This document shows positions 561 to 48,764 of a stretch of 64,000 bases of DNA, piece after piece; position 1 is the stretch's first letter; the number at the start of each line of letters is the position of its first letter. The DNA is taken from positions 1 through 64,000 of IMG/VR virus record IMGVR_UViG_3300028914_000064; one strand, given 5' to 3'. Source of the DNA: a virus (Duplodnaviria > Caudoviricetes). A program made the position numbers and the translations under genes. A model generated the notes under the pieces. That model ran no database searches, was not told where the DNA came from, and saw only the letters and a program-made list of their open reading frames with translations.

Positions 561-1547
561 ATGGAAGAAGTAATTAATAAAATCGTAAACGCAATGGATG
601 ATTTGTCACCAGAGCAGATCAGAAAGCTTAGGAATGTGTTGATTATCAATCTTAACAATCAACCAAGTCCGAAGAATGAAGTGAGCACAGGTTTTGAAAG
701 TTGGGAGCAGATTCTTAAGAATTATCTTGGCTGTAAGAAGCTTGAGAACTGTGCAGATGGAACTATTATGAACTACCGAAGGATTCTGAGGATAATGTAT
801 TCTGAGATTGGAAAGCCAATAAGAGACATTACTTCTAATGACTTAAGGTTTTTTATGGCTAAGTACATAGAAGAAAGAAAAATCTCAATGCAATACTCGG
901 AAAACATTAGGCACATTCTGAATGGATTCTTTAGATGGTGCCAGGATGAAGAGATTATCCGGACGAATCCTGCAAGAAAGCTTCAAAGGATAAAAGTCCC
1001 AAGGCTGATAAAGAAACCATACACGGCAGAGGAAAGGCTTAGACTTACAAGAACAGCCAAGTGTATGCGAGATATGGCAATCATGGAAGTCTTGTATAGC
1101 ACTGCGGGAAGACTTGGCGAAATCCTAGCTTTGAACAGAGAGGATGTAAAGTTTATTGGCAACAAAGCGGAAATCATAATATATGGACAGAAAGGCAAGG
1201 CAGAGAGAAAAGTCTTTCTTACAGAGCAAAGTGTTTATTATCTGAAGAGTTACCTTGAAAGTCGAACAGATAATGATCCTGCATTATTTGTATCTTTAAG
1301 AAAGCCATTTCATAGGATTGATGAAAGAGCAGTTCAGTTAATGATTAAGAATCTTGGAGAACGGTGCGGAGTAGTGGCACATCCACATAAGTTCAGAAGG
1401 ACTCTCTTAACTGATATGAGCAAACGTGGAGCAAACATTCAGGACATAAAGGAATATGCAGGGCATGTGAAGATTGAAACGACAATGCTTTATGTTTCAA
1501 CCAATGAAGAGTCAGTCAAAGCAGCATTTGATAGATGTATAAGCTGA
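561..1547 (+). CDS. Tyrosine recombinase (XerC/D-like; probable shufflon invertase)
   Basis: N-terminal SAM-like domain; catalytic R (AGRLGE), HPHKFRR, AGH and TTMLY; AGGAGG RBS; flanked by cassettes. Confidence 0.92.
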   Translation: MEEVINKIVNAMDDLSPEQIRKLRNVLIINLNNQPSPKNEVSTGFESWEQILKNYLGCKKLENCADGTIMNYRRILRIMYSEIGKPIRDITSNDLRFFMAKYIEERKISMQYSENIRHILNGFFRWCQDEEIIRTNPARKLQRIKVPRLIKKPYTAEERLRLTRTAKCMRDMAIMEVLYSTAGRLGEILALNREDVKFIGNKAEIIIYGQKGKAERKVFLTEQSVYYLKSYLESRTDNDPALFVSLRKPFHRIDERAVQLMIKNLGERCGVVAHPHKFRRTLLTDMSKRGANIQDIKEYAGHVKIETTMLYVSTNEESVKAAFDRCIS

Positions 1548-3674: not shown

Positions 3675-6600
3675 GTGAGAATAATGCGGAAAAATGAAGG
3701 AAATATTATTCAGATTGGATTTTATAGTGATGTAGAAGGTTTTATAAAAGAAATAAGACAGAAATTGTCATATGTAAAAGATTGGGGATTAAAGGATTCT
3801 TTCAAGGAAGAAGTTGATGACTTAGAAAAAATGCTTTCTAATCTTTCAAAGTCCTTTTCTGATGGAATGAGTGCGAAGCTTGATACAAAGACGTTTGCGA
3901 CTTTCAAGAAGGAAATGGCCAATGAAATAAATGAGGTTGTAAAGCGTATAGAAACCCTTGAAGACACTGTTCAGGGTCTTGTTCTTACGTTTGATTCAGC
4001 GGATGGAGGAAAATTTAAAACATATATTTCTTCTGTTAGCTCAGATGTAAATAACCTTAAAACTACTATTGAATATACTGTTAAAGCAATTGAAGAGCTT
4101 AAAAGTGTAATAAGTAGAAGTGATGGGAAAATTCAATTTGCTGATGATCGTACTACTGTTCTTCTTAATAAGGAACTTTCAGAGCTTCAAGAAATAAAAA
4201 GTCTTCGTGAACAGATAGCCAGTATTATAGATGACAATAAATCTGGAAGTACTGAAATATCTCCAAATATGAAAGAAGCTAAAGAGCAAGTTGAGGATTA
4301 TGGTAAAAAATTAGAAGAAGCTCAAAAAAAATTATCTAAAGGTTTAGCAGGTAGTGTAGGTGGTAGAAAATTGACAACCCTTCAATATGAGTTGGCTGTT
4401 GTCACTGAACAGATAGCATCATTGTTTCAAGATGCAGGAGGAAAATATGGAGATAAAGTAAAAGATGTTTTTTCTTCTAAAATTCGAGAGATGATGTATA
4501 ACGCTGAGGGCGAAGTTCTTACTTTCGAAGAAAGAACTCAAAAAAGAATTGAGAAAGTCAGAGAAGGATTAAATCAGTTAGGAAATCCTTCTGCTCTTTC
4601 AATGGATAAAGCAAGAACTACTTTGTTTGCTCCTTTGGATATTAGTACTTCAAGTAAAGATATAATTGATAAAGCAATTAAGATTATCAATAAAGCTCAA
4701 AAAGAGATAGATAATAATCCTTTAAAAATAGAGTTTGTTCTTTCGTCAAAATATTCCTCTAGAAAGACAAATAGTCTTTTATCAGAATGGCAAAAACAGA
4801 TAGATAACATTGAAGATGATGAATTAAGAGAAAAATTCAAAGGTCTTTATGAAACCATTGCAAAAGATTTTAAAAAAGAGATAAAGTTCACTGTTACCCC
4901 CGACATCAATAATGCTGAAGCAAAAGTAAATAAACTTATTGCAGACATTAAAAAAAAAGTTGAAAGTAAAATTCATCTTCAATTTGAAATCAAAGAAGCC
5001 GATTTAAGAAAAATTCAGGGTAATCTTGATAAACTTACTTCTAATCTTAAAGTAAATCTTTCTGATTTAAATATTGTTGAGGTAACAGATTCAATTAAAG
5101 AAGCAACGGAATCACTTCAAAAGATGTTGGGTGTTTTTTCAAAAGAAGATCTTGATAGTATTTTTGAAAGAATGCGGACATCAATTGAGGGAATAAATGG
5201 AAGTCTCCGTGGTGGTGATAAAAACGAACTTGTTTCACAATTAAAAGAGATTTTAGTTCTTTATAAGCAATATAAGGATATGGGTGGAACTAATACTCTT
5301 ACTGATCTTGGTGGAGCAAAAAATGTACAGAATTGGCTTTCAAAACATGCAGATGATGAGATTCAGACTTCTAATTCTTTTGTTTCTGAAGGCAAAAATG
5401 GAATTCAAGGATATGCAGAAGGTATTCGTGAAGGGATACCAGAAGTTGTGAAGGCAACGGAAGAATTGGTGAAAGCTGCGCTCAAAACTCTTCAAAAAGC
5501 ACAAGAATCTTACTCTCTTATTGGGAAAAATTCAATCAAGGAATATGTAAAAGAATTTGAGAAAGCGACTGATGAATTAAAACGAGTTGCTTCAAAATTA
5601 AGTGACGATACTATTAAGTCATCAAGTATTTCTCAACAAAAGAAAAAGGCTTCAACTCAAAAAACAAAAAAGAAGGCTGATAATGCCTTGGTAAGTGATT
5701 CCCAACCTCTTATTTCGAAAAATGTTTCTAAAGAAATTGAAAAAGCTGCTACTGCTATAGAAAAAGAAGGGAAATCTGCTTCAACTGCTAAGAAAAAAAA
5801 AGAAGACTTTGCAAAAGCAAATGAAAAAGTTGCAAAGGCAAGTAAAAAAACTGCTGAAGAAACTAAAAGTGCTACTGAAGCTATAGAAGCAGAACAAAAA
5901 AAAGCAGAAAAAGCTAGAGAAGCAGCTCTACAATATGAACAAAGAACCCGTAGAGCAAATGATCAAAAAGTGGGTAATGATAGAGAAGCAGCTTTACAGT
6001 ATGAACAAAGGACAAGAAGAGCAAATACTCAGAAAGAAGAAAAAGAAAGAGAAGCAGCTTTACAGTATGAGCAGAAAGTTCAAAAAGCATATACTCAAAA
6101 GATAGATAAAGAAAGAGAATCTGCTTTACAATATGAACAGAGAACAAGAATGGCAAATGCTCAGAAAGAAGAAACGGATAGAGAAGCTGTTTTGCAATAT
6201 GAGCAAAAAACCAGAAGGGCAAATGCTCAGAAAGAAGAAAAAGAGCGAGAAGCTGCTTTACAATATGAACAAAAAACTCGAAGAGCAAATATACAACAAG
6301 AAGAAAAAGATAGAGAAGCTGCTTTACAATATGAACAAAAAGTTCAGAGAGCTTATGCCCAAAAACTAGAAAAAGAACGAGAAGCCACTCTACAATATGA
6401 GCAAAAAACAAGAAGAGCAAATGCCCAAAAAGAAGAAAAAGAAAGAGAAACTATTTTACAGTATGAACAAAAGGTTCAAAAAGCTTATGCTCAAAAGACG
6501 GAAAAAGAGAGAGAAGCCGCCTTGCAATATGAACAGAAAGCTCGAATGGCAAATGCTCAAAAAGCGGAAAAAGAAAGTGAACAGGTTCTTAGAGAAACTC

Positions 6601-9600
6601 AAAAGATAAATAGAGCTAATGCTGCTATAAAGACAGATATGCTCAATTCGATTCTTAAAGACTTAAAAGGAAGTAAATTCAATAAAACTTTTATAAGTCC
6701 TTTTCAAGACCAGATAACTCAACTTCGTGAACAAGTGAAGCATCTTCTATCTCTTGATGATGTTGATTATGATAGTATTAAGAAGCTTCAAACAGAACTT
6801 GAAAGATTAAAAGATAGTGTTTCAGATAAAGATACTCTACGCACTTTAACAAAAGCAGAAACTACGGCTGTTACAAATCTGCAAAGAAAGATTAGTAATT
6901 TTTTAAAACAGAATTCTGCCATGTCTCAAGAATTCAAAGACGAATTGATAGATCTTCTAAAAACTTTAAGTAATGCTGGCGGAATTACTGAAGATACTTT
7001 TAGAAAAGTAGCTGAAAGATTTAATTTAATCGATTCGATAATTTCAGCAATAGATAAAAAGGGTCTTTCATTTGGTGCTCATTTCTTTAAAATGCTTAAG
7101 AGTGCAAATGCTCAATTTCTTGCTACTTATTTTAGTTTCCAGGATCTTGTCAGATATTTGAGAGAAGGTTTGCAAATAATAGTTGAAGTAGATACTGCCC
7201 TTACAGAGCTTAGAAAAGTAAGTGATGCTACTGATAAGAGATTATCACAAAGTTTTAGAGAATCTGCAAAGACTGCAAAAGAACTTGGAGATACTATTTC
7301 AAATGTTATTGGAGTTACAGCTGATTGGGCAAGACTTGGATACTCTGTGGATGATGCAGAAAAGCTTGCCAAAGTTACTACTCTCTTTATGACGGTTGGC
7401 GACAATATGACTTCAGAGGATTCAAGTTCCTATCTTATTTCCACCTTAAAAGGTTTTGGGAAAGCTGCTGATGAAGCTGAAGATATTGTAGATGTTTATA
7501 ATGAAGTTGCTAACAACTGGGCCATTGATACAGCCGGTATAGGTGAAGCTTTACAGAGATCTGCTGCATCCTTTTATGCTGCAAATACTGATCTTGAAAA
7601 AGCAGTGGCTCTTATTACTGCTACTAATACTGTTATTCAAGATCCTTCTTCTGTTGGTACTTTATGGAAAACCTTGTCTGCTCGTATTAGAGGAGCAAAA
7701 ACAGAATTACAAGAGCTTGATGAAGAAGAAGATGAATTTACTGAAACAACATCAAAATTAAGAGATCTTGTAATGGGTCTTACAGGTTTCGATATTTTAG
7801 AAAGTGATCTAAAAACATATAAGGATATCTATGAGATTATTTTGGGCATTGGAGAAAAATGGCAAGATCTCTCAGATATTGAGCAGGCTTCACTTGCAGA
7901 AGCGTTAGCCGGAAAAAGAAATAGTAATGCTCTTCTTGCTGTGTTAAATAATCTTGATACTCTTCAAGGAGCATATAAGTCAGCGCTTGAAGCCGAGGGA
8001 AGTGCAAGAAAAGAGCAAGAAAATTATGCACGTTCTGTACAGTATTCTATTGATGTATTAAAAGCTGCTTCACAAGAATTTTGGACTACTTTAATAAATT
8101 CAGATGGAGCAAAATTTATAATTGATTTCCTTACAAAGGTTGTTGAATTTCTTACAGAGATAACTCGTATCACTCATGGTAGTCTTGCTCTTGGAGGAGG
8201 CATATTATTAGTATTGTTTGGAAAAGATCCGGAAGGGTTCGCAAACAATTTTATTAAGCTTTTAGATTCTTTGGGCAAAGATTTAAAATTCATAACATTA
8301 GAAATGGATTCTATGGGAAGAGTTACAAAAAGGACAGTTGATACTTTTAAAGCATTGCAATTATCAATAAAAGCTGTGATTGCTATTTTAGTAATAGCAG
8401 CTGCTATAAAAGCATGGCAACACTTTAATGTTACTGTAGAAGAAACACAAACTGAGATCGATGAGCTCACTCAAAAGATAAAAGGAATAAAAGATGAAAT
8501 AAGTGAGCTTGAAAATATTGAGTCAAAAACAGATAATCAAAAGGAGAGATTATCTTATCTTAGGAGCGAACTTGAGATAAAAGAAAAACTTCTAAAAATA
8601 GAAGAACGTAGAAAAGCTGCCGAATCAGTAACTTCTAAAAATGATAGTTGGGTAAAAAAATTCACCGATTCTTTTGATAAAGATAATTACACGACTTATC
8701 TAGAAAATTTCAAAGAAGATAAACGTGTAAAAGCTAATGATATGAATCCTGGAGATTTAGCACAAGTAGAAGAAACCTTTCAACCAAATCTTGATATTAA
8801 AGCAGATTCTGAATTATATCAAGAATTAACAGAAAAAGTTAAAGGATATGAAAATCAGCTAGCTAGTCTTACAAAAGGTTCTAAAGAATATAATAGAGTA
8901 AATTCTGATCTCACAAAAACTTCTGCTAAGCGTGATGAAATAGAAAGTTCGATCATAAATAATTACGAAAAGGAATATGAAGATTATCTGCTTTTAACTC
9001 AAAAGCTTAACGAGATTAAAGAAATAAGAGAAGGTTTATCAAAAGATGATCCACTTCAGGGAACTTATATTGAATTAGAAAAAGGCTATGAAGAATATAT
9101 AGAAAAGGAAAGAGATTTTCTTGTTAAAGTCAGAGAGCTTTTGGGTAAAGATACTTCTGATCTTACTATTGATAAAAGACTTAATGAAGCAAATTCTAAG
9201 ATTGCAAAGGGAAATAAAAAAGAACTTGCAAAACTAGAAGAAGAAGTAAAATATTTTTCTTTAGAAGAAAAAGAAGCTTGGATAATTGCTACTGAAGGAG
9301 CAAAAGATGCCGCTGAAGCTCTTAAGATGTACGAAGAATATTTATTGGAAGTACAGGAAGCTGCAGAGAATGGTGTTGCTACTAAGTTTGATCAGGCAAA
9401 ATTTTCTGAACAGGTAAATAAATTAGATGCTCTTCAGTCAGCATATAATACGTTTGTTGAAAACGTAGAAAATGGCGAATCAAAGATTAATCTTGATATA
9501 TCTGATATCGATGCTCTTCGTGAAGATTTCGGATCACTTGAATCTTTTGATGAATTTGAACTTAAAGTTACGGCTGATACTTCTGGTGTTGATGAAATAC

Positions 9601-12600
9601 AAGATGCTTTTGATACTCTTCTTACTGAGCATGTGAATCAAAAAATCGCCTTAAAGAAAATAAACGATGAAAATAAGGATATGATTCGCACTCAGATTGA
9701 GATGGAAGGTGTTACTCATGAAAGTGCTCAAAGATTTGTTGAATATAAGTTAGAAGAAGCAAAAGCTGCAGAGTATGCTTTAGAAAAAGAATCAGAGTTT
9801 CAAGCAAAGTTACAAGAAACTGCACGAATAGCTACACTTTCTCGCGATCAAGTTGAGAAATCGTTAAAAGAGTTCGAACAAGGTGGTGAAGTAAATCTTA
9901 CTCTTCGTCCAAAGGTTGATACTTCTTTGTTGGAAGAAGCTGGTTGGACTGATGCTGGTAATGGAATAGCGACATTGTTTACAAGCACCTTTTCTAATGA
10001 AACTGAAGATGTCGCTATAAATTTCACTCCTATCTTAGCAGATGAGAATGGAAAATTAGATAGAATCCTTTCTCCAGAAGCTCTTCAAAAATATGCTGAA
10101 GAAGTAATTGCCGGAGTTCATGAAGATGATTTGCATCTTCAGATCGGAGCAAAATTCACAGGTGAAGATGCTATTGAACAAGCTGAACAAGCTGCTCAAA
10201 AAATACATCAGCTTCAAGCTATATATTATGATCAAATGGGAGATGATCAATTTGCAGCATTTATTGAAGAAGATGTTTATGCTTTGATGGATGAAGCCGA
10301 ACAATTAGGAATTAACACTACTGCTTTAGCTGCATATAAAGCAGAAAAGTTTGCAACTGGGGAACATCCAATAAGTACTGCTTTAGATCGAGCTGAATTA
10401 TTAGCCCTCGTTCAAATGCTTCAAATTACTGAAGATGAAATGATCACATTGAGAAAGTGTATTGATCTTTTGAATGGCGGCGAGATAATGTCTGAAGAAC
10501 GACGTAATACTATAATACATCGTATTCAAGAGATTACTGCTGAATCAATACAGAAAGCAACCAATGTTAAGGTCAATTATGATTATGGCAAAGCAGCAAA
10601 AGGTGCGTCTAAAGGTGGTAAAGAAGCTGGAGATGCTTATGTTGAAGCTTATGAGAAAGAATTAAAGAAATTAGAAGATCTCAGGGATAGAGGTCTTATT
10701 TCTGAAAAAGAATATCTTAATCGTTTAAAGCCTCTTATTGATAAGTACTTTAAGGACAGAGCAAAGTATGCTGAGAAATATGCTGAAGAACTCAAAAAGT
10801 ATATGGATCAGATGCTGAGCTATTATAATTCTGTAATCTCAGGTGTTACTACTCTTTTGGATAAGAGGATAAATGCTCTTCAAAAGAACAAAGAGACTAC
10901 AATAGATGCTTTAAATAAAGAAAAAGATGCCGCTCAGGAACGTTATCAGGCTGAGATTGATGGAATTCAGGATGAACTTGATGCTTTGGAGGATCGTCAG
11001 GATGCACTTGATGACCAGCAAAAAGCCCTTGATGAACAGATTGATGCATTAAATGAGCAGATTGGTGGAATTGATAAGGAAATCGATAGATATCATGACA
11101 TGATAGATGCCATCAATGAAGCTAATGATGCAAGGCAAAGAGAGATCAATCTTCAGAAGGCACAATATGAACTTGAAAGAGCTCAGAATCAGCGAACCAA
11201 ATTGGTATATACCGGTGAAGTCGGTCAGATGCGTTATGAGAGGGATGAATCTACTGTTCGTGATACTCAGGAAAACGTAAGGCAGGCAAAAGACCAAATT
11301 GCTATTGCTGCTCTTGAAAAGAAGATAGATCTTCTTGAGAAAGAAAAAGAGCGTATCGAGGAAGAGATAGATGTCATTGAGAAACAAAAAGATGCGATTG
11401 ATAAGCAAAAAGATGCTTTAAATGAACAGTCAAAGGATCTTCAGAAACAACAGGAAGAAGTTCAGAAAGCAATGGAATCTTCTTCAAAGTATTATGAAAA
11501 GCTTATAAAAAAGCAGGAAGAATTCTTTGATGCTCAGATTGCTGCTCTTGAGAAGACCAAGACAAAATGGGAAGAACTTGCTGAGATAGATGAGATATCA
11601 AAAGCATGGGGTCTTGTCTCTGATGAGATGACTTCTCTTGGATTTACTGTTGAAGATGTTCTTAATGATGTTCCCGGTGCTTTTGATGCATTTAAAGAAC
11701 AGTATATTGCCGTTCTTCAGGAGATGCATAAAGGAGATCAGGGATATCTTGACGGTCTTAAAGAAAATGCATCTGCTATCCCAACAGAATATGGCAAGGT
11801 AACTCAGTCTGTTACGGAAGCTAAAGGGCCTATTGATAACCTCTCCTCTTCTGTTTCAACTGCATCATCCAATGTATCGACTCTTGGAACTTCTGCATCA
11901 ACTGCATCTACAAGTGTAAATAACTTAAAGACTGCTTCTCAGGGAATTGCTGAAAATTTTGAAGCATTAAATGAGGTTTCATCGCTTGAAAATCTAAATG
12001 ATGCTCTTAAACTTGTAGAAGAATCTCTTATAAATATCAAAACCCTCATCGGAGGTATGGGAGATCCTGGTACCGGTTCTATTTATGGTGCGATCGGTGC
12101 TTTAAATACATTGACACTTGATAATCTAAAGTCTGCATTTGAAGAACTTGCAGGAGCTGTAGGTGGCGTTATCTCTGCTCTTACGGGAAGTATAGTTGGA
12201 AGTTCTGGTGGAAGTACTACTCTGTTTAAGAAGTATACTACTAATACAACTGCTGCAAGTATGACAGGTGGTGGACTTATTAGTGGAATACAAGCAGTAA
12301 AAGATAAGACTGATGACGTGATCGGAACAAGTGCTGAAGAAGACGGTGCTAATGCTATTGGCTCATTTAGAGAACTATTAAAAGCGATTGAAAATGTTGT
12401 AGACCAGATTGGAGTAGATAAAGAAAAGAAGGGTACGCTACTTTATTCTATAGGCCTTATTTCAAAGGTAACTCAGAATGAGATAAATGGTAGTGGTGGT
12501 GCGATAAGTGCATTTAATGATCTTGAGTCAAAGATTGGAAGTGTAAAAAATGCTGCTAATGCTCTTTTATCTGTGCTTAATGATATATCTTCTGTAGAAC

Positions 12601-13181
12601 TTCCAGATCCAGGTTCGCATATGTCAAGCTCTGGAAATCAGCATGGTGGTTCTTCTGGTTCATGGGGAAAATCAAAGGCTCAGGGTGATCCTAATGTAAA
12701 AACAAATGGAAGAAGTCTTGTTGGAGAACTTGGTCCGGAAGTTGTTGTTCGTGGAGATAAATACAAAGTTGTCGGAGTTAATGGTCCAGAATTTGTTAAT
12801 CTTAAAAAAGGAGATATTGTCCTTAACAGTAAAGATACAGAAGAGCTTTTTGATAAAAAGGATCTTCATGGTAAGGCATTTGCTGAAGGAAGTAAGTTTA
12901 CTCCATTCGATCTAAGTGATTCTTATAAAGGACTGCTTGACAAAGTAAAGACCATGGACTTCCCTACAATGCGTGAGATAAAGTCTTCTATCGATAATCT
13001 TACAAGGACTGTGCAGTCAGAGATTCAGAATGTCACAACGACAAGAACCAAAGTTACTCAGAACAATACTTTCAATATAAGTGGAGTTACGGGTGAAGAA
13101 GTTGCCGAGAAGATAAATAATACCCTTGTAAAGACATTTTCAGGAATGAGCCTGAACGCATATCAAAGAAGCATGGCTTAA
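3675..13181 (+). CDS. Tail tape measure protein (3168 aa)
   Basis: TP901-type TMP core (VDTALTELRKVSD...ADWARLGYS...KTLSARIRG), long coiled coils, C-terminal LVGELGPEVVV motif. Confidence 0.9.
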   Translation: MRIMRKNEGNIIQIGFYSDVEGFIKEIRQKLSYVKDWGLKDSFKEEVDDLEKMLSNLSKSFSDGMSAKLDTKTFATFKKEMANEINEVVKRIETLEDTVQGLVLTFDSADGGKFKTYISSVSSDVNNLKTTIEYTVKAIEELKSVISRSDGKIQFADDRTTVLLNKELSELQEIKSLREQIASIIDDNKSGSTEISPNMKEAKEQVEDYGKKLEEAQKKLSKGLAGSVGGRKLTTLQYELAVVTEQIASLFQDAGGKYGDKVKDVFSSKIREMMYNAEGEVLTFEERTQKRIEKVREGLNQLGNPSALSMDKARTTLFAPLDISTSSKDIIDKAIKIINKAQKEIDNNPLKIEFVLSSKYSSRKTNSLLSEWQKQIDNIEDDELREKFKGLYETIAKDFKKEIKFTVTPDINNAEAKVNKLIADIKKKVESKIHLQFEIKEADLRKIQGNLDKLTSNLKVNLSDLNIVEVTDSIKEATESLQKMLGVFSKEDLDSIFERMRTSIEGINGSLRGGDKNELVSQLKEILVLYKQYKDMGGTNTLTDLGGAKNVQNWLSKHADDEIQTSNSFVSEGKNGIQGYAEGIREGIPEVVKATEELVKAALKTLQKAQESYSLIGKNSIKEYVKEFEKATDELKRVASKLSDDTIKSSSISQQKKKASTQKTKKKADNALVSDSQPLISKNVSKEIEKAATAIEKEGKSASTAKKKKEDFAKANEKVAKASKKTAEETKSATEAIEAEQKKAEKAREAALQYEQRTRRANDQKVGNDREAALQYEQRTRRANTQKEEKEREAALQYEQKVQKAYTQKIDKERESALQYEQRTRMANAQKEETDREAVLQYEQKTRRANAQKEEKEREAALQYEQKTRRANIQQEEKDREAALQYEQKVQRAYAQKLEKEREATLQYEQKTRRANAQKEEKERETILQYEQKVQKAYAQKTEKEREAALQYEQKARMANAQKAEKESEQVLRETQKINRANAAIKTDMLNSILKDLKGSKFNKTFISPFQDQITQLREQVKHLLSLDDVDYDSIKKLQTELERLKDSVSDKDTLRTLTKAETTAVTNLQRKISNFLKQNSAMSQEFKDELIDLLKTLSNAGGITEDTFRKVAERFNLIDSIISAIDKKGLSFGAHFFKMLKSANAQFLATYFSFQDLVRYLREGLQIIVEVDTALTELRKVSDATDKRLSQSFRESAKTAKELGDTISNVIGVTADWARLGYSVDDAEKLAKVTTLFMTVGDNMTSEDSSSYLISTLKGFGKAADEAEDIVDVYNEVANNWAIDTAGIGEALQRSAASFYAANTDLEKAVALITATNTVIQDPSSVGTLWKTLSARIRGAKTELQELDEEEDEFTETTSKLRDLVMGLTGFDILESDLKTYKDIYEIILGIGEKWQDLSDIEQASLAEALAGKRNSNALLAVLNNLDTLQGAYKSALEAEGSARKEQENYARSVQYSIDVLKAASQEFWTTLINSDGAKFIIDFLTKVVEFLTEITRITHGSLALGGGILLVLFGKDPEGFANNFIKLLDSLGKDLKFITLEMDSMGRVTKRTVDTFKALQLSIKAVIAILVIAAAIKAWQHFNVTVEETQTEIDELTQKIKGIKDEISELENIESKTDNQKERLSYLRSELEIKEKLLKIEERRKAAESVTSKNDSWVKKFTDSFDKDNYTTYLENFKEDKRVKANDMNPGDLAQVEETFQPNLDIKADSELYQELTEKVKGYENQLASLTKGSKEYNRVNSDLTKTSAKRDEIESSIINNYEKEYEDYLLLTQKLNEIKEIREGLSKDDPLQGTYIELEKGYEEYIEKERDFLVKVRELLGKDTSDLTIDKRLNEANSKIAKGNKKELAKLEEEVKYFSLEEKEAWIIATEGAKDAAEALKMYEEYLLEVQEAAENGVATKFDQAKFSEQVNKLDALQSAYNTFVENVENGESKINLDISDIDALREDFGSLESFDEFELKVTADTSGVDEIQDAFDTLLTEHVNQKIALKKINDENKDMIRTQIEMEGVTHESAQRFVEYKLEEAKAAEYALEKESEFQAKLQETARIATLSRDQVEKSLKEFEQGGEVNLTLRPKVDTSLLEEAGWTDAGNGIATLFTSTFSNETEDVAINFTPILADENGKLDRILSPEALQKYAEEVIAGVHEDDLHLQIGAKFTGEDAIEQAEQAAQKIHQLQAIYYDQMGDDQFAAFIEEDVYALMDEAEQLGINTTALAAYKAEKFATGEHPISTALDRAELLALVQMLQITEDEMITLRKCIDLLNGGEIMSEERRNTIIHRIQEITAESIQKATNVKVNYDYGKAAKGASKGGKEAGDAYVEAYEKELKKLEDLRDRGLISEKEYLNRLKPLIDKYFKDRAKYAEKYAEELKKYMDQMLSYYNSVISGVTTLLDKRINALQKNKETTIDALNKEKDAAQERYQAEIDGIQDELDALEDRQDALDDQQKALDEQIDALNEQIGGIDKEIDRYHDMIDAINEANDARQREINLQKAQYELERAQNQRTKLVYTGEVGQMRYERDESTVRDTQENVRQAKDQIAIAALEKKIDLLEKEKERIEEEIDVIEKQKDAIDKQKDALNEQSKDLQKQQEEVQKAMESSSKYYEKLIKKQEEFFDAQIAALEKTKTKWEELAEIDEISKAWGLVSDEMTSLGFTVEDVLNDVPGAFDAFKEQYIAVLQEMHKGDQGYLDGLKENASAIPTEYGKVTQSVTEAKGPIDNLSSSVSTASSNVSTLGTSASTASTSVNNLKTASQGIAENFEALNEVSSLENLNDALKLVEESLINIKTLIGGMGDPGTGSIYGAIGALNTLTLDNLKSAFEELAGAVGGVISALTGSIVGSSGGSTTLFKKYTTNTTAASMTGGGLISGIQAVKDKTDDVIGTSAEEDGANAIGSFRELLKAIENVVDQIGVDKEKKGTLLYSIGLISKVTQNEINGSGGAISAFNDLESKIGSVKNAANALLSVLNDISSVELPDPGSHMSSSGNQHGGSSGSWGKSKAQGDPNVKTNGRSLVGELGPEVVVRGDKYKVVGVNGPEFVNLKKGDIVLNSKDTEELFDKKDLHGKAFAEGSKFTPFDLSDSYKGLLDKVKTMDFPTMREIKSSIDNLTRTVQSEIQNVTTTRTKVTQNNTFNISGVTGEEVAEKINNTLVKTFSGMSLNAYQRSMA
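5916..6640 (+). repeat. 66-bp (22-aa) tandem coding repeat inside the TMP
   Basis: 10 copies of about REAALQYEQKTRRANAQKEEKE plus one degenerate copy. Confidence 0.9.
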
Positions 13182-13700: not shown

Positions 13701-15092
13701 TTAACAAGCCGTGAGCAAGAAATCCCCCACCTCTAAGCGTAGCGTAGGTGGCGGGATGAATTGCTGTATACACGGCGCTTTTCTTTTGCTTTTAGAACGC
13801 CTGTTTGGTATACTGTTGGTATGAACAAGGCGATCAAGTACAGGTTATATCCCACAACTGAACAGGCTGTCATGTTTCTCAAGACCTTCGGCTGTTGTCG
13901 CAAGGTCTATAATCTTATGCTCTCTGACAAGATCGAGAGCTATAAGTCTACCGGCAAATTTGCTGCTGTGACTCCTGCAAGGTATAAGAAAGAATATCCA
14001 TACCTCAAAGAGGTAGACAGCCTTGCTCTTGCCAATGTGCAGCTTGATCTACAGGAAGCATTCGGGAATTGCTTCAGTAAGTCCCGTAAAACAAACAATG
14101 GCTTTCCAAAGTTCAAGTCTGCAAAGCGCAGCCGCAAGTCCTATACTACCAACTGCCAGTATCCAAAACCGTCAAACAAGCTAAAACAGCCCACGATCCG
14201 TATTTATGATAAAAGCATTGTCCTTCCCAAGGTTGGCTGTGTTAAAGCGGTCATTCACCGCAAACCTTCGGATGGTTGGATGCTTAAATCCGCTACGATT
14301 TCCATGGATTGTGATGGTAAGTTTTTCGCTTCATGCCTGTTTGAATACGAAGCGCTTATTGCCCTCAATAGTTCTACTGATAAAGTCTTAGGTCTTGACT
14401 ATAAATCAGACGGCCTTTACATGGACTCTGATGGCAATATTGGTTCTAACCACAAATACTATCGTGAGAGCCATGATAAACTTGCCAAAGCACAGCGTAA
14501 GTTAAAAAATAAGACCATTGGGAGTAATAACTATCGCAAACAACAGCTTAGGATAAACCGCATCCATAAACATATAGCCAATCAGCGTCTTGAAAATCTC
14601 CACACACTTTCTACCGAGATAGCCAATCGTGTAGATGTGGTATGCGTGGAGTCTCTTAACATGCGCTCAATGTCCAATAAAGGTTTTAGAAATGGCAAGG
14701 CTACAATGGATAACGGCTATGGCATGTTCCTTAACATGCTTGAGTATAAACTTGCTGACAGAGGTAAACGTTTCATCAAAGTTGATAAATGGTTTCCGTC
14801 AACGCAGCTTTGCAGTTGTTGTGGCAGCCGTAAAAAGCTTGCTCTTAATGAACGTATCTACAAATGCAGTTGTGGTCTTACCATTGACCGAGACCTTAAT
14901 GCTGCCATCAACATCAGAAATGAAGGCTTACGCATCCTGCAAAGTGCGTGAGCATCATATATGGTAGGCTAGGAACTAGCCGAACCCAAAGCCTGCGGAC
15001 ACTGTGTAAGACGCATCGTTACATTTCCTTGTAGCCTGCGCAGTGGTGGTTGAAACAGGAAGCTCCGACTTCTATAAGTCGGAGTAGTTCAC
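13701..15092 (+). mobile_element. IS200/IS605-family tnpB-only (IS1341-like) element
   Basis: TTGAT immediately 5'; left-end hairpin (CCACCT...AGGTGG); right-end hairpin CTCCGACTT-CTAT-AAGTCGGAG ending TTCAC; GC higher than flanks. Confidence 0.8.
13821..14951 (+). CDS. tnpB: TnpB RNA-guided endonuclease, catalytically intact
   Basis: MNKAIKYRLYP start; RuvC GLDY, VESL and DRDLNAAINI; zinc finger CSCCG...CSCG. Confidence 0.92.
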   Translation: MNKAIKYRLYPTTEQAVMFLKTFGCCRKVYNLMLSDKIESYKSTGKFAAVTPARYKKEYPYLKEVDSLALANVQLDLQEAFGNCFSKSRKTNNGFPKFKSAKRSRKSYTTNCQYPKPSNKLKQPTIRIYDKSIVLPKVGCVKAVIHRKPSDGWMLKSATISMDCDGKFFASCLFEYEALIALNSSTDKVLGLDYKSDGLYMDSDGNIGSNHKYYRESHDKLAKAQRKLKNKTIGSNNYRKQQLRINRIHKHIANQRLENLHTLSTEIANRVDVVCVESLNMRSMSNKGFRNGKATMDNGYGMFLNMLEYKLADRGKRFIKVDKWFPSTQLCSCCGSRKKLALNERIYKCSCGLTIDRDLNAAINIRNEGLRILQSA

Positions 15093-31289: not shown

Positions 31290-32020
31290 CTGTTTTTGAT
31301 TTTTTTATCTTTTTTATATATTTGTCCATTTTAAATATTAAACGTCTTTTATGGGGTAAATTTTGATTTTTAAAATAAATATCACATTTATGATATCACT
31401 AATTTAATATAAGTATATTAATATTATGATATTAGATTATATATAGCACTTTCTATATATTGATATTTTTATATTTATTTATTGATACATATATTATAAT
31501 TCTTATTTATATATAGCAATATTAATATATTTATTTTTATATCGCAGTATTATATATTAGATATTTATATTTCAGTATATATATTTTGATTTTATATTAT
31601 ATAAATTCATATATATATTTTATATATTCAATATATATATTTTTGTTTTATGATATTTATATTCATAAATTGTTTTAATAATATCAATATTATAAAAGCA
31701 ATTTATTTATTTCACTATTATGAAAGCAGATTTTAAATATATGTTTATAAATATCAATATTGACATATCAAATTTTGTATATTACAATTAGAAAACCTAT
31801 TTTATGATTTTAATATTTTGTTATTGATTTATAAATTTGTATTTTTATATTTATATTTGTATATTTTGATTTTTATATTTTGCTATTTTGATATTTATTT
31901 TTTGATTGTATTTTTATGATATTGCTATATTCAAATTGCTATCCATATATCAATTTTATTATTCCTATTTTGTAATTGTGATATTTATATTTAAATATCG
32001 TAATATATATTTTTATTAAT
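31290..32020. promoter_or_regulatory. Extremely AT-rich non-coding tract, probable partition centromere (parS/parC)
   Basis: About 730 bp without ORF; dispersed ATA(T/G)CAAT motifs in both orientations; directly upstream of parA. Confidence 0.55.
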
Positions 32021-34176: not shown

Positions 34177-34490
34177 TGAATTTCCTAGAATTTGGGTATG
34201 AATTTCCTAGAATTCGGGTATGAGTTTCCTAGAATTTGGGTATGAATTTCCTAGAATCTAGAACAAAAAATGGCATAAAAAAACACCCCAATTTCCTAGA
34301 ATTTGGGTGTGACTTTCCTAGAAATCGGAATGTATCTCCTAGAATTTAGAATCGTTTCCTAGAATTTAGAACATTTTAAAAAAGGCCGTATTTATGGGGA
34401 ATTTTAAAAATAATAAAAATTCTGTTTTCTAGGAGATTTTACGGAATGTTTTATTTACTAAGCTTTAAAATATTCTATATTCTAGGAGAG
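34177..34490. repeat. Iteron array (replication origin)
   Basis: 22-bp tandem units TGAATTTCCTAGAATTTGGGTA (4 copies), a second block of 4 TCCTAGAA units at about 34290-34370, and inverted TTCTAGGAG copies near 34427 and 34480. Confidence 0.88.
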
Positions 34491-34597: not shown

Positions 34598-35839
34598 ATG
34601 GGGCGAGAAAAGACACAAGATAGTATCACTGAAATTCTTTCAAGTAAAAAATATACAAAATCTAATGCTTTGGTCAATGCGAAAGGGAAGGCTGGATTGT
34701 TAGCTGAAAAACTTTTTGCTGTAGGAATTCAACGAGCAGTTGAAGATGAAAAGACCGGCATTCTTACAACAACAATCCGAGGAATAGAACTAAAGAAAAT
34801 ATTTCAAACTAATAGAGGATCTTTTTATGCTGATGTCAGTGCTTTAGTAGATCCTCCGACGAATGATTCTCCCTCTTTACTTGATTGGAGAATCATCTAT
34901 AAGGACGATAACTCACAAACTATTGAAGCAATGAATGTTATTACGGATTGCTCTTTTAAAAAAGGTGTTTTCGAGATAAGATTTAATAGCAAGATTACTC
35001 CACAAGTAAGAAGATTACAAGCGAATTATACTGTTTTTTCACTTGCAGATACGATGCCATTAAAAAGTATCTATTCGTTTAAGCTGTATGAAATTTTAAA
35101 GTCTGAATATGATAAACAGGACTACGTAGCAAAGAAAGAAGAATCTTGGCAGCCTAATGCTGTTTATATAATGGACATGCATATAGTAGACTTAAAATTA
35201 AGAGTAGGAGTTATTGATAGTTCATGGAGTAGTGAGATATCAGAAGAACTTAGAAAATTAGAGCCAAATTATGATATTATTGAAAAGATAGTAGACGAAC
35301 AGCTAAAGAACGAAGGAGTTATTGATAAAAACAAGAAAACTTATAAAAGTTATAAGAGGATAGATAATTTTAAAAAAAATGTTCTTGATAGAGCAAGAGA
35401 TGAATTAAAAGAAAAAACGTCCATTAAGTTTGAATATAAAAATTTAACAGGTGGACCTGGAGGAAAAATAAATGGCATAAGATTTTTTATTTCTCGGAAC
35501 ACAAAAGACTCTGACAATATTGAAATTAGTGAGAATCCGAAAGAAGCTTTATCGAAAGAAGAAAAATTTGAAATACTTGATTCTATTGCTGATATTATAG
35601 GAGACTCATTCTCATACAAAGAAATCAAAATAATTGCTGAAAAATCTGAATATAATATTGAGAAAGTTAAAAGCGCTTATAATGTTATGAGACAAAGTAA
35701 AACAAGAATAGATAACCCAATAGCATGGATGATAAGTGCTATAGAAAATAATTATCAGAACAAAAATAATAGTTTCAGCAATTTTAAGCAGAACACTTAT
35801 GATTTTGCAAAATTGGAAGAGCAGCTTTTGGAAAATTAA
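34598..35839 (+). CDS. Plasmid replication initiator (Rep_3/RepB-type)
   Basis: KSNALVNA; LKSIYSFKLYEILKS; FKKNVLDRA..EL; C-terminal FSNFKQNTYDFAKLE; adjacent iterons. Confidence 0.85.
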   Translation: MGREKTQDSITEILSSKKYTKSNALVNAKGKAGLLAEKLFAVGIQRAVEDEKTGILTTTIRGIELKKIFQTNRGSFYADVSALVDPPTNDSPSLLDWRIIYKDDNSQTIEAMNVITDCSFKKGVFEIRFNSKITPQVRRLQANYTVFSLADTMPLKSIYSFKLYEILKSEYDKQDYVAKKEESWQPNAVYIMDMHIVDLKLRVGVIDSSWSSEISEELRKLEPNYDIIEKIVDEQLKNEGVIDKNKKTYKSYKRIDNFKKNVLDRARDELKEKTSIKFEYKNLTGGPGGKINGIRFFISRNTKDSDNIEISENPKEALSKEEKFEILDSIADIIGDSFSYKEIKIIAEKSEYNIEKVKSAYNVMRQSKTRIDNPIAWMISAIENNYQNKNNSFSNFKQNTYDFAKLEEQLLEN

Positions 35840-43078: not shown

Positions 43079-43292
43079 AAAAGGGAGGATTCTTTTCGAT
43101 GATAAGTCAGGATGAAGCAATTTTGATTGAAATTATGAGAGTAAATAGAAAAGAAATGGCTTTATTATATCTTGAACATTATGTTCAACGATTTGGGCCT
43201 CTTAGAAATGAAGTTGGGGATATAATTAAAAAGATTTTGGAAGAAAAAGAATAAGAAATAAATTTATAAAATATATTTAATGGGAGTTACTA

Positions 43293-44459
43293 ATGATTAA
43301 ATCTATGAAAGTAATGTTACTTCCTAACAACGTTCAAAAGACAAGGCTATTCCAACACGCAGGAGCGGCAAGATTTCTTTATAATTGGGCTCTTTCAATG
43401 GAAGAAAAGAATTATAAATTAGGCGGAAAATTCATATCATATTATGAGCTTGCAAAAGAACTTACAGAGCTTAAGAGAACAGATGAATATGCATGGCTTA
43501 ACGAAATATCAATCACAACATGCCAAAAGGCTATAAAAGATGCCTGTGATGCCTATTCTAACTTTTTTAAGAAAAGGGCAAAATTTCCCAAATATAAATC
43601 AAAGGATAAGACAAAACCAAGTTTCTTTCAGACAGACCAGGTTATAGAATTTACCGATACACATGTAAAGCTAAGTTGTTTGTCCCTTAGCAGGAAGGCA
43701 AATAGAAAACAATTAAACTGGGTAAGACTTGCAGAACATGGCAAGATACCAATAAATGTAAAGCATAGCAATCCGAGGATAACTTACGATGGTCTTAATT
43801 GGTGGATAAGCGTAGGGATAGAATATCCTGATAAGAATGTAAACTTATCTGAAGAAGGATTAGGTGTTGATCTAGGAATAAGGAACCTTGCTGTGTGTTC
43901 TGATGATAGCATTTATCCTAACATCAATAAGACCAAGGCGATCAAAGATTTAGAGAAGAGAAAACGAAGATTGCAACGAAGTATATCCAGGAAATATGAG
44001 ATGAACAAAAAGGGGGATGAATTTGTAAAGACAAAAAATATAATAAAAGATGAAAAAAAGTTATTAAAGATGCACCACAGGTTGAGTAATATTAGGAAAA
44101 ACTATTTACATCATACATCAAAAGAAATAGTTGAAAAGAATCCTAAATTCATCTGTATTGACGACCTAAATATTCAGAGCATGATGAAGAATAAATACCT
44201 TGCAAAAGCAATTCAGGAACAGTCACTTTATGAATTTTCAAGGCAGCTTGAATATAAGAGTAATTTCAAAGGAATCCAATTTATAAAAGCAGACAGGAAA
44301 TTTCCATCATCTAAGAAATGCAGTCAATGTGGCAGGATAAAGAAAGATTTAAAACCTTATCAAAAGACATATAAGTGTGAGTGTGGAAATGTTATTGATG
44401 TACATAAGCAAGCGGCGCTCAATCTTAAAACATATGGAGAAGAGAATATTGCAGAATAA
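43293..44459 (+). CDS. tnpB: IS607-type TnpB derivative with degenerate RuvC active site, CRISPR-associated
   Basis: MIKSMKVMLLPN..Q HTH start; RuvC-I GVDLG intact; RuvC-II CIDDLN (E to D); RuvC-III IDVHKQAALNL (DRD to DVH); zinc finger intact; no tnpA nearby. Confidence 0.85.
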   Translation: MIKSMKVMLLPNNVQKTRLFQHAGAARFLYNWALSMEEKNYKLGGKFISYYELAKELTELKRTDEYAWLNEISITTCQKAIKDACDAYSNFFKKRAKFPKYKSKDKTKPSFFQTDQVIEFTDTHVKLSCLSLSRKANRKQLNWVRLAEHGKIPINVKHSNPRITYDGLNWWISVGIEYPDKNVNLSEEGLGVDLGIRNLAVCSDDSIYPNINKTKAIKDLEKRKRRLQRSISRKYEMNKKGDEFVKTKNIIKDEKKLLKMHHRLSNIRKNYLHHTSKEIVEKNPKFICIDDLNIQSMMKNKYLAKAIQEQSLYEFSRQLEYKSNFKGIQFIKADRKFPSSKKCSQCGRIKKDLKPYQKTYKCECGNVIDVHKQAALNLKTYGEENIAE

Positions 44460-44466
44460 TATTATT

Positions 44467-44634
44467 GTACCGAAAGCTGGTTCGGGAATTTACGCCTATG
44501 GAGAGTACTTGAACTTGTTAGTAGACAGCACCATCGTCGAAAGCATACTCGATGAAATAGGAATGGATCATAAAAGTATATCTTTTTATAAGTATTCAGC
44601 CGGGATTTAGTCCCTTGCATCTTATGAATTTGAC
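44467..44634 (+). ncRNA. omegaRNA-like scaffold with 3' anti-repeat (tracrRNA-like)
   Basis: CCGAA-AGCTGG-TTCGG hairpin whose loop can pair with TCAGC (44596-44600); CCTAT/ATAGG and GAGTA/TACTC stems; 44613-44634 complementary to the CRISPR repeat. Confidence 0.7.
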
Positions 44635-44934
44635 CTTTTAGAAGTATGTAAATTTGCATGGGTGTAAAGCCAGTGACTTTCTTTGCTTTGTATCCAGTAT
44701 CTTTTAGAAGTATGTAAATTTGCATGGGTGTAAAGCAGAAAAGGCTGTCAGCTACGTTAAATCCATCTTTTAGAAGTATGTAAATTTGCATGGGTGTAAA
44801 GCTTACAGACATGTCACCTTGTTCATAAAGTTCTTTTAGAAGTATGTAATTTTATATGGGTGTAAAGCAAGAAGTCACATTGAAACTATATTCGGATACT
44901 TTTAGAAGCATGTGATTTTATATGGGTGTAAAGT
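44635..44934 (+). CRISPR. CRISPR array, 5 repeats of 36 nt and 4 spacers of 30 nt
   Basis: CTTTTAGAAGTATGTAAATTTGCATGGGTGTAAAGC at 44635, 44701 and 44767; degenerate copies at 44833 and 44899. Confidence 0.95.
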
Positions 44935-44957
44935 ATTGATGGCTATGTGAGGATTTC

Positions 44958-45215
44958 ATAGATGCAAAGCGTCTTTTTGAGAAAATAACTAAAAGGCGGG
45001 CAATAGATGCAAAGCCCTCTCGCTTGCTATGTAATGCGTGACTATTATGGATGCAAAGTTGAAGTGTTTCAGAGTTAAAAGAAATAAGCTTGGGAACAAA
45101 TTATTAGCAGATATTGCTTTTAGGAGCCAAAACACCAAACCTGTTATTGTATACCTCTAACAAGGCTCCTAAAAGCTTATCAAGATGCAAAGCTAGACTA
45201 TAATGGATTCAAAGT
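44958..45215 (+). repeat. Dispersed 13-nt mini-repeats (ATRGATGCAAAGY)
   Basis: Copies at 44958, 45003, 45047, 45181 and 45203. Confidence 0.7.
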
Positions 45216-47206: not shown

Positions 47207-47983
47207 TTATTTTCTGCAATATTTATTTTCGGCAAAGTATAATTCTTTAAGCGAATATATTGTTGTCCCATCATTAACAACATATGCCTGGAAATCCTTA
47301 TTTGAGAACTTCATAACATGACGCAAATTTATAATAAAATCTTTTTCTTTAGAAAACTTCGTAATCCATTTTGCGCAGTTATCACCGCATGTCGATGCAT
47401 TAAAAATCATATCTGGATTGTTATATATCAGCATCAAAGTTTTTGCTCCACCGGAAAGTTTTGTAGGTGGCATAACCCCAAATATAGGACTATTAATACT
47501 ATTTGCGTTTATAACTTCTGACTTGTCCACGCTTTTAATCATTTTCTGCATTTCAGGATTCTCAAACCAAACATTTTCATATTTATTATTAAAGTACATA
47601 TCTGTGTTATATATACTTCCATTGACAGAATCCCCAAAAACAATATTTAACTTAGAAAGTGGAATCCCATTTTTCTTACAATATAATTTAAGTGCACTTA
47701 GTAGATAAGCATATCTCTCATCAGATTGCTTATCAATCAGCCATATTTTAAATTCCTCAATCCCTTTTAGATCAATATAATCGTCCTTATTCTGTGTATT
47801 AAAAATACGAATAATTTTTTTGCAATCTTCGGCTTGTTTTATTTCGTGAAAAAAGAGATTTATTTCATCTGAAAAAGATTTTTTTGATTTACTACTGATA
47901 TTTTGTATGGCTTTCTGTACTATTGACATTAATTTTGGTAGATATATATTCAATTTATCATCCATTGAATTTTTATAATTCAT
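47207..47983 (-). CDS. DUF4869-like protein with N-terminal extension
   Basis: LSGGAKTL...FNASTCGDNCAKW. Confidence 0.65.
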   Translation of the reverse strand: MNYKNSMDDKLNIYLPKLMSIVQKAIQNISSKSKKSFSDEINLFFHEIKQAEDCKKIIRIFNTQNKDDYIDLKGIEEFKIWLIDKQSDERYAYLLSALKLYCKKNGIPLSKLNIVFGDSVNGSIYNTDMYFNNKYENVWFENPEMQKMIKSVDKSEVINANSINSPIFGVMPPTKLSGGAKTLMLIYNNPDMIFNASTCGDNCAKWITKFSKEKDFIINLRHVMKFSNKDFQAYVVNDGTTIYSLKELYFAENKYCRK

Positions 47984-48219: not shown

Positions 48220-48657
48220 TTAAACATATTCCAGAGCTATATGAATATAATCATGAAGAGTATTTATTTTTTTATTTTCATTGATAATGCCTATTTCGAG
48301 ATTTTTACAATTGTCAAAAGGCATATAATATCTTAAATTAACAGAAACGTCTTTTTTTTGACCTATTTCTAATAACCATTTAGCACAATTTTCTCCACAG
48401 CTGGTAGCATTAAACATAAGATCTGGTCTTTTATATATACAAATAAGTGTTTTTAATCCACCAGATAATCTTTCCGGAGGAATTGGCCCAAGTAGATCAC
48501 TTACAATTAATTGTCCACCTTTATAATGTGATTTGTCTATATCTTCCATCATTTTAGATATAAATGGATCTTCAAACCACTCTTCTTTATAATTAAATAT
48601 AAACCAAGATGGACCATATATTACGTCTTCTTTTTCACCAAAAAATATACTCAACAT
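48220..48657 (-). CDS. DUF4869-like protein
   Basis: MLSIFFG...LSGGLKTL...FNATSCGENCAKW. Confidence 0.65.
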   Translation of the reverse strand: MLSIFFGEKEDVIYGPSWFIFNYKEEWFEDPFISKMMEDIDKSHYKGGQLIVSDLLGPIPPERLSGGLKTLICIYKRPDLMFNATSCGENCAKWLLEIGQKKDVSVNLRYYMPFDNCKNLEIGIINENKKINTLHDYIHIALEYV

Positions 48658-48764
48658 TTTATTTGTCCTTACAAATATATTGTTATTTTTATGAAGGGGC
48701 GGAGCAAAGATTGCTCCGCTTGGGGGAATGTATATTTTATGTTTGTGGGGGACAAACATAAAGC

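Follow-up and report, generated by a model that had tools for sequence, protein, structure and literature searches.

We analyzed a 64,000-nucleotide stretch of phage DNA (positions 1 to 64,000 of the IMG/VR virus record IMGVR_UViG_3300028914_000064; hereafter the window), in which the gene P0001 encodes a domesticated, transposase-less TnpB of the IS607 type and is followed by an array of clustered regularly interspaced short palindromic repeats (CRISPR). Very probably, this protein is the effector of a minimal, adaptation-less, type V-like (TranC/V-U-like) CRISPR system that the phage carries against competing phages. The anatomy of the locus, its conservation, the selection acting on it, the turnover of its array, and its phage targets were shown by the analysis; the assembly of the RNA, the motif recognized beside the target, and the outcome at the target are inferred. 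As to its action on DNA, we tentatively propose, at slightly less than an even chance and judging from its active-site residues, that the effector would bind its target without making a double-strand cut.

Anatomy of the locus

P0001 (43293–44459, + strand) is an intact open reading frame (ORF) of 388 amino acids, and a ribosome-binding site read from the sequence, GGGAG, lies at 43282–43286 (+ strand), 6 nt before the ATG. The protein, of the IS607/RAGATH-18 type, matched the NCBIfam model guided_TnpB (1.2e-83) and contains the Pfam domains HTH_OrfB_IS605, OrfB_IS605, and Cas12f1-like_TNB. The closest solved protein is ISFba1 TnpB (PDB 8IAZ), by sequence (E 8.6e-70) as well as by fold (E 5.8e-31), and the AlphaFold (AF2) model of the effector, with a predicted local distance difference test (pLDDT) score of 82.6, confirmed the TnpB fold. 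The zinc finger (C343, C346, C362, and C364; 44319–44384, + strand) occupies invariant columns of our protein alignment A1, and these residues are Cys in 54–55 of the 55 members of the clade described below. The intact 388-residue IS607-type TnpB, the ribosome-binding site, and the zinc finger all agree with the initial annotation of this DNA.

Immediately downstream, at 44460–44600 (+ strand), lies the guide-RNA scaffold, known as reRNA (right-end RNA) or omegaRNA, which was delimited by aligning nine clade loci with five outgroup loci and could start inside the 3′ end of the gene. It contains a RAGATH-18 core at 44495–44563 on the + strand (Rfam RF03064, 64.4 bits against a cut-off of 44.9, E 1.6e-10); in TnpBs of the IS607 type, this motif forms the guide-RNA core (PMC11061315). 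The CRISPR-like array occupies 44635–44934 (+ strand) and begins 175 nt past the tnpB stop, so both the omegaRNA-like scaffold and the five-repeat array stand as first described. It consists of five 36-nt repeats, starting at 44635, 44701, 44767, 44833, and 44899 (period 66 nt, Tandem Repeats Finder scores 230–303), and four 30-nt spacers, S1 (44671–44700), S2 (44737–44766), S3 (44803–44832), and S4 (44869–44898). Repeats 1–3 are identical, and repeat 5 is degenerate, with about 85% identity. Beyond it, a decayed distal array end was recognized at 44935–45215 (+ strand), where 13-nt remnants of the repeat 3′ end stand at spacer-like distances; a homologous stretch is present in two relatives (L021 and L022).

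The locus lacks the features of a mobile transposon: the array-linked tnpB is present as a single copy, its scaffold ends unlike that of the outgroup loci, an array follows, and the whole 126-kb source record contains no serine recombinase (resolvase), which extends the initial statement that no transposase accompanies the gene. The same record contains neither Cas1 nor Cas2, also in line with the initial annotation. Cas1 was likewise absent from three sister-phage records (G002–G004), one of which is a complete genome of 83 kb. Because a complete sister genome lacks Cas1, the uptake of spacers must depend on something outside the phage.

Conservation, phylogeny, and selection

A protein search returned a tight group at 78–96% identity, followed by a gap down to 64% identity or less, and the clade of the effector comprises 55 distinct full-length, intact relatives. 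In the tree, this clade is monophyletic, with a support of 100 in the Shimodaira–Hasegawa-like approximate likelihood ratio test (SH-aLRT), and is placed inside the canonical TnpBs with a long stem branch (0.7 substitutions per site). By this phylogeny, the effector lineage arose within canonical TnpBs, far from LaTranC and Cas12f, which agrees with the independent origin that was initially suggested. LaTranC is only distantly related to the effector (E 3.7e-11 over 118 residues). In the structural comparison, Cas12m2 matched the effector model with E 1e-8 and a template modeling (TM) score of about 0.36–0.5 of the query, and TnpB and Cas12f chains matched far better; neither by sequence nor by fold does the effector belong to the Cas12m or Cas12c subtypes.

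The array was found in the same register, about 176 nt past the stop, in L004, L005/L006, L009, L010, L011, L021, and L022. All relatives with enough downstream DNA show it, and linkage is present in the window and seven distinct relatives (eight loci); the sequences of L007 and L008 end inside the first repeat. None of the five ordinary outgroup loci (L001–L003, L012, and L013) has an array: past the end of their scaffold comes unrelated DNA that constitutes the guide. A burst of change on the stem branch and a change at a residue contacting the target-adjacent motif (TAM) coincide with the gain of the array.

Within the clade, the pairwise ratio of nonsynonymous to synonymous substitutions (dN/dS) was 0.04–0.10, with dS values of 0.2–2.9, at which synonymous sites are near saturation. 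Array linkage, array register, and the RuvC-III substitution described below are conserved across the clade under strong purifying selection. These data bear on the explanation that the locus is the decaying remnant of a dead transposon and that the repeat stands beside it by chance; the missing transposase and one changed catalytic residue would speak for it. We give this explanation a negligible probability; it is refuted by the dN/dS range, the 55 intact relatives, and the conserved arrays with phage-matching spacers. The same observations exclude the outcome that the initial annotation had set as its own refutation, namely that the closest homologues are ordinary array-less IS607 TnpBs and that this copy shows neutral decay.

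The RuvC active site

The activity of ISFba1 TnpB requires D194, E290, and D371; its D371A mutant is inactive and is the construct that was used for cryo-electron microscopy (PMC11061315). The effector does not carry this canonical D-E-D triad, having D193, D290, and H371 in its place. The RuvC-I residue Asp193 (codon 43869–43871, + strand; motif GVDLGI) is retained, aligns with ISFba1 D194, and is Asp in 55/55 clade members. At RuvC-II, position 290 (codon 44160–44162, + strand) is Asp here (ICIDDLN, with IEDLN in relatives) and Glu in the outgroups; among the 55 clade members it is Glu in 30, Asp in 25, and non-acidic in none. At RuvC-III, position 371 (codon 44403–44405, + strand), His stands for the catalytic Asp (IDVH, with IDRD in relatives), and in the HMMER alignment H371 faces the Ala of the D371A mutant chain of ISFba1 in 8IAZ. 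This position is His in 52 clade members, Asn in two, Leu in one, and Asp in none, and it is Asp in 36/36 outgroup proteins of alignment A1. D369 is kept in 53/55 clade members. The ordinary relatives (about 100 proteins at 64% identity or less) all have IEDL and DRD.

The active-site change that defines the clade is the single RuvC-III Asp-to-His substitution; the RuvC-II Glu-to-Asp substitution is not clade-wide. The initial annotation reported two altered RuvC positions, which is right for this copy, and it proposed checking whether homologues conserve both substitutions together with the array. The RuvC-III substitution and array linkage were conserved in that check, and the RuvC-II substitution was not. 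In total, 22 fixed clade-specific changes were found, none of which adds an acidic residue. One change, K78Q, is present in all clade members at the counterpart of the ISFba1 TAM contact K83; ISDra2 has Q80 there.

Spacer turnover and phage targets

Spacers differ between relatives: those near tnpB are unique, and the distal ones are common, in the same order, to L009, L010, and L011, a pattern that points to polarized addition at the tnpB side. The repeat forms a 6-bp hairpin with compensatory changes. Pairing in this hairpin reaches 84% for the + strand as against 70% for the − strand, and about 30 G-U cells in the hairpin alignment work on the + strand only. This better pairing indicates that the RNA is made in the direction of tnpB. 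The coupling of the protein to its own multi-guide array, as originally proposed, is borne out by the common register in relatives, by selection, and by polarized spacer turnover. In L009, one 30-nt spacer is present twice (5379–5408 and 5773–5802, positions 1 and 7) and contains a motif resembling the repeat end. A match of the repeat to a "Listeria phage" lies inside a coding region and was dismissed as chance.

Full-length matches to the DNA of other phages were obtained for two of the four spacers in the window. For S2, the 30/30 match falls within a gene for an HNH endonuclease in a complete 45-kb phage (40% G+C), and S3 matches 30/30 in a metagenome contig; from these matches, the targets of the array are taken to be rival phages. 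Spacer 1 of the nearest relative, L021, matches the same 45-kb phage at 27/30, in a gene with weak, sub-cut-off, portal-like Pfam matches, and the 22 contiguous 5′ bases of L005 spacer 1 match another viral contig. For S1 and S4, the viral and genome collections contained no exact match of 22 nt, and no convincing spacer match was obtained in the GenBank phage collection. The initial annotation proposed silencing of rival mobile elements or host genes; the first part accords with the spacer matches to rival phages, and no host target of the array was found.

The 5-base 5′ flanks of the foreign and kin protospacers are TTTAA, ATTTA, TTTTG, GGTTC, and CGTAT, and those of two self matches are ATGAC and TCAAA. 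These seven protospacers gave no fixed consensus for a protospacer-adjacent motif (PAM). None of the flanks resembles the ISFba1 TAM, AGGAG, and those of the foreign targets are T-rich; the K78Q change at the TAM-contact position agrees with flanks unlike AGGAG.

Some spacers match their own phage or its kin, which raises the possibility that the array chiefly regulates genes of the phage itself or of close relatives, as a TldR-like multi-guide repressor, and does not serve to exclude unrelated phages. The newest spacer of L010 (spacer 1) matches its own complete 83-kb genome at 30/30, 13.5 kb from the array; the site (G003:C1:46746-46775) is in a 56-amino-acid ORF beside ribbon-helix-helix-like genes and is also found in two sister phages (L033 in G002, and G004:C1:47159-47186). 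L009 spacer 10 matches its own record at 28/30, and a further L010 spacer matches a sister phage at 27/30. In three relatives, the first 8 nt of the tnpB-like gene are shared with an Xre-type helix-turn-helix gene (L004:592-921, L008:3682-4011, and L021:3094-4008). However, the window spacers have no self-target in their own 126-kb record, the spacers of the window and of its nearest relative find their best matches in the unrelated 45-kb phage, which has 40% G+C against 32% for the phage of the window, and the spacers turn over fast, unlike the fixed guides of TldR. Regulation of self or kin as the chief role is improbable on this evidence.

Alternatively, the array could be an orphan whose guides go to an effector of the host, of type II-A or, should the − strand be the one transcribed, of type VI-D; its place beside tnpB would then have another cause. 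The phage carries no Cas1 or Cas2 and host machinery would be needed in any case, and − strand transcripts would make five of the six guides antisense to their target mRNAs. The 36/30 repeat-spacer geometry and the repeat ends are also what we take to be II-A/VI-D-like, a likeness to the general form of such repeats and not to actual repeat sequences. On the other side, the array stands in the same register beside the scaffold in every clade member and is missing from ordinary relatives, the hairpin pairs better on the + strand, and growth takes place at the tnpB-proximal end. The coincidence of the stem-branch burst and the TAM-contact change with array gain also speaks against an orphan array, as does the repeat having no match among the Rfam CRISPR repeat families. 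We regard this explanation as very improbable and retain the array as the guide source of the adjoining TnpB.

Scaffold extension and its relation to the repeat

The scaffold is conserved with ordinary relatives up to their scaffold end, and its last stem covaries in cis. It is followed at 44601–44634 (+ strand) by a clade-specific extension, a small hairpin and about 20 conserved nt, which is present in all clade loci, absent from the outgroups, and located where ordinary TnpBs have their guide. We interpret this extension as the leader of the array and perhaps an anti-repeat. The 126-kb record was found to contain neither another copy of the extension nor a target that would make it a "guide 0". 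The repeat begins with 12–13 nt similar to the last scaffold strand. This similarity is consistent with an array that arose when the end of the scaffold was duplicated together with its guide, a general scenario put forward by Altae-Tran 2023 (PMC10691335).

Three candidate pairings between scaffold and repeat were rejected. An anti-repeat inside the scaffold (+29 to +66 past the stop) had a folding free energy of −22.7 against −17.9 ± 2.5 for shuffled repeats, of which 22/500 were as good; it also overlaps the RAGATH-18 P1 stem and fails in L004 and L005. For an anti-repeat at 44612–44634, the free energy was −8 to −14.5 kcal/mol, which in most loci was not clearly better than for shuffled repeats, and the pairing register was inconsistent, with only an 8-bp, G-U-rich helix common to four loci. 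A strand exchange, in which the 5′ end of the repeat would enter the final stem of the scaffold, was dismissed since that stem covaries in cis and the repeat does not follow. A fold of the whole region gave a z-score of −0.9, and in the promoter and terminator scan, sites were no more frequent than in shuffles.

Binding or cutting of target DNA

In the mechanism that we propose, the gene, the RAGATH-18 scaffold, and the array would be transcribed on the + strand, the repeat-spacer units would yield 30-nt guides, and the scaffold would serve as a protein-binding RNA resembling a trans-activating CRISPR RNA (tracr-like RNA). Spacers would enter at the tnpB-proximal end, presumably by host Cas1-Cas2. 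The complex would bind a DNA target beside a short T-rich 5′ motif without the usual double-strand cut and, once bound, would block the transcription or replication of the rival phage. The role left to the conserved pocket of Asp, Asp/Glu, and His would be to process the guide RNA or, at most, to nick.

The central argument for binding is that the third carboxylate has been replaced with His throughout the lineage and no compensating carboxylate was gained, on which ground we consider binding without the usual double-strand cut the most likely action. Position 371 is never Asp in the 55 members, Asn and Leu are also seen there, and ISFba1 TnpB needs its D371. Two related phages also tolerate self-matching spacers (30/30 in the complete 83-kb genome, and 28/30 in the other). 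The protospacers lie on the coding strand in five of six scorable cases, a geometry that fits a roadblock and is the one in which dCas12a roadblocks work. K78Q and the T-rich flanks were also counted on this side.

Several points weigh against this reading. His371 is conserved in 52/55 members, D193 is invariant, and position 290 is always acidic, so that by its residues the site resembles a functional metal-binding one. Among nucleases with an RNase H fold, His can serve at the corresponding position, as in the DEDH site of Argonaute and His983 of the Cas9 RuvC domain. The two self protospacers lack the T at −3 of the foreign ones, so their tolerance could be due to the lack of a PAM. The coding-strand bias is suggestive without reaching significance, and all candidate scaffold-repeat pairings are weak and without covariation, leaving no convincing anti-repeat. 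Altae-Tran 2023 (PMC10691335) and Nety 2023 have argued that conserved RuvC rearrangements may stay active; the RuvC-III Asp-to-His change is treated in that literature as a possible rearranged active site, and the experimental test there covered a RuvC-II variant (PMC10691335). The description of the protein as apparently nuclease-dead, with which the initial annotation began, is not established, given the invariant D193, the always acidic position 290, the conservation of His371 itself, and a literature that allows for an active RuvC-III His.

The rival explanation keeps the same system, role, and RNA logic, but holds that the effector is still an RNA-guided DNA nuclease that destroys rival phage DNA, as other TranC/Cas12f-like effectors do, with a RuvC site rearranged to Asp, Asp/Glu, and His and perhaps aided by Asp369. 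It is a serious contender, to which we assign an appreciable probability that falls short of even. The conservation of D193 (55/55), an acidic residue 290 (55/55), D369 (53/55), and H371 (52/55) favors it, as do the non-T-rich flanks of the self-matching protospacers. In the published work, conserved branches with a RuvC-III Asp-to-His change are inferred to keep activity and one RuvC-II-rearranged TnpB cuts, and CauTranC9, a phage-borne effector of TnpB size whose native spacers match phages, is reported to cut (bioRxiv 10.64898/2026.03.27.714800). However, cutting by a TnpB or Cas12 with a RuvC-III His was not found in the literature that we examined, ISFba1 D371A is inactive, no carboxylate was gained, and Asn and Leu occur at position 371. 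In addition, three TranC clades (4, 6, and 24), to which the present clade may or may not belong, showed no PAM depletion in the 2026 screen.

Guide-RNA maturation by RuvC is performed by TnpB, Cas12c, and Cas12j. A middle reading, in which the RuvC pocket of the effector may have been kept for guide-RNA maturation, would fit both sets of facts.

Comparison with known systems

The general concept has already been published, in that TnpB-sized, array-linked effectors, including IS607-derived and phage-borne ones, as well as DNase-free type V effectors have been described. TnpB-sized array-linked proteins without cas1/cas2 are classified as V-U6 to V-U45, some of them with altered catalytic sites (Altae-Tran 2023, PMC10691335). 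As presented in PMC13565253 and PMC13639567, TranC (transposon-CRISPR intermediates; Jin et al., Cell 2025) originated repeatedly from IS605 and IS607 TnpBs. A 2026 preprint adds the phage-borne, TnpB-sized, active TranC9, with spacers matching phages, and the three TranC clades without a detectable PAM (bioRxiv 10.64898/2026.03.27.714800).

The present locus resembles TranC/V-U systems in its TnpB-sized protein, its descent from transposon TnpBs (IS605 or IS607), its downstream array, the lack of cas1/cas2, and the reuse of a transposon RNA as guide scaffold, and it shows both stable array linkage across relatives and variable spacers matching mobile elements. It differs in keeping a complete, cis-folding reRNA scaffold with no clear repeat/anti-repeat split and in the clade-wide RuvC-III His; the comparison with the numbered groups was made by their descriptions. 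CauTranC9, also compared by description only, is likewise phage-borne and approximately TnpB-sized, with no added REC or WED domains, a short array (reported as five repeats of 38 nt), phage-matching spacers, and a compact PAM. Unlike the present effector, it is a reported active nuclease, and its clade averages 414 amino acids against 388 here.

ISFba1 TnpB (Ren et al. 2024, PMC11061315; 8IAZ) has the same size, RNA core motif, and zinc finger, but it is transposon-borne and uses a single guide, the D194/E290/D371 site, and an AGGAG TAM. The present locus has no transposase, an array, a D/D/H site, Gln instead of Lys at the TAM contact, and T-rich flanks. If the effector only binds, the logic would be that of Cas12m, Cas12c, Cas12k, and TldR, in which RNA-guided binding blocks expression; in Cas12c, RuvC is kept for RNA processing. 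All four are unrelated lineages, Cas12m, Cas12c, and Cas12k are much larger, and no RAGATH-18 scaffold has been reported for them or for TldR. TldR uses one fixed guide against host promoters, whereas the present array has multiple fast-changing spacers with targets in phage coding regions. By the catalytic loss that marks TldR, the present clade has lost one of the three RuvC residues and kept two.

The RIIIr-4 TnpBs (PMC10691335) carry the same RuvC-III Asp-to-His change at the same position in a conserved lineage that is also found in viruses. They form a separate major clade without a zinc finger and linked to RHH (ribbon-helix-helix)/MazE genes, whereas the present clade falls among the "typical" DRDxN proteins, has retained its zinc finger, and is array-linked. 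Distinctive for the present clade are the whole RAGATH-18 scaffold, the lineage-wide RuvC-III His, the kin and self matches, and its residence in a phage family.

The phage record and neighboring genes

The source record, a virus contig from IMG/VR, has a length of 126,091 bases and an estimated completeness of 67%, with tape-measure, tail, endolysin, DNA polymerase, and replication-initiator genes. It carries two tyrosine recombinase genes (window 561–1547 and, on the same record, G000:C1:80481-80930), and ParB was not found on it. The carrier is a tailed phage, described as gut-type. Given the tail and tape-measure genes, the two tyrosine recombinases, and the absence of ParB, the initial label of phage-plasmid lacks support.

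A second, unrelated TnpB (window 13761–14951, + strand; 396 amino acids as listed) is located between the 3168-amino-acid tape-measure gene and the tail genes. It is 27% identical to the array-linked TnpB and, as the initial annotation stated for the copy near 13821, keeps the D/E/D triad; Rfam detected no RAGATH-18 motif beside it. The giant tape-measure gene (3675–13181) contains a tandem repeat of 66 nt (198 nt), with about 10 copies at 75% identity, at 5899–6581. A dense patch of A+T-rich tandem repeats with periods of 8–56 lies in an intergenic region at 31454–31922. A 22-nt unit is repeated 3.7 times with 93% matches at 34177–34257, about 340 nt upstream of a gene (34598–35839) that matches a phage replication-initiator family, and these units look like origin iterons.

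Just past the array, two adjacent DUF4869 paralogues lie on the − strand (window 47207–47983 and 48220–48759). In place of the Xre-type gene seen in three relatives, the window and L022 have ORFs of 122 and 51 amino acids, respectively, with no family match. L022 also carries a HicA/HicB toxin-antitoxin pair (L022:4347-4989) about 1.5 kb downstream of its array.

Significance

The lineage represents an early stage in the birth of a CRISPR system from a transposon, in which the protein size is unchanged and the RNA scaffold is whole. It combines a working array and polarized spacer turnover with no adaptation genes, in phages that aim at phages. If the RuvC His site is inactive on DNA, the effector would be a very compact natural programmable DNA binder and the clade a clean natural experiment on the RuvC-III Asp-to-His change, a question on which the TnpB literature has yet to settle. 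An active site would instead widen the known nuclease chemistry of Cas12 and TnpB. In either case, the clade, with 55 or more variants, native guides, and known targets, is ready for direct testing.

In its fullest form, the proposal describes a natural effector of 388 amino acids that would make no double-strand cuts, use its pocket only for guide maturation, and silence rival phages, and sometimes kin, from the template strand beside a T-rich PAM, with an array refilled by host Cas1-Cas2 through repeat mimicry. That all of these parts hold together is rather unlikely, and we put this joint reading forward as speculative. Should it be true, no smaller natural RNA-guided DNA binder with multiple guides would be known, and the effector would mark the point at which a transposon RNA scaffold, not yet split, begins to serve an array.

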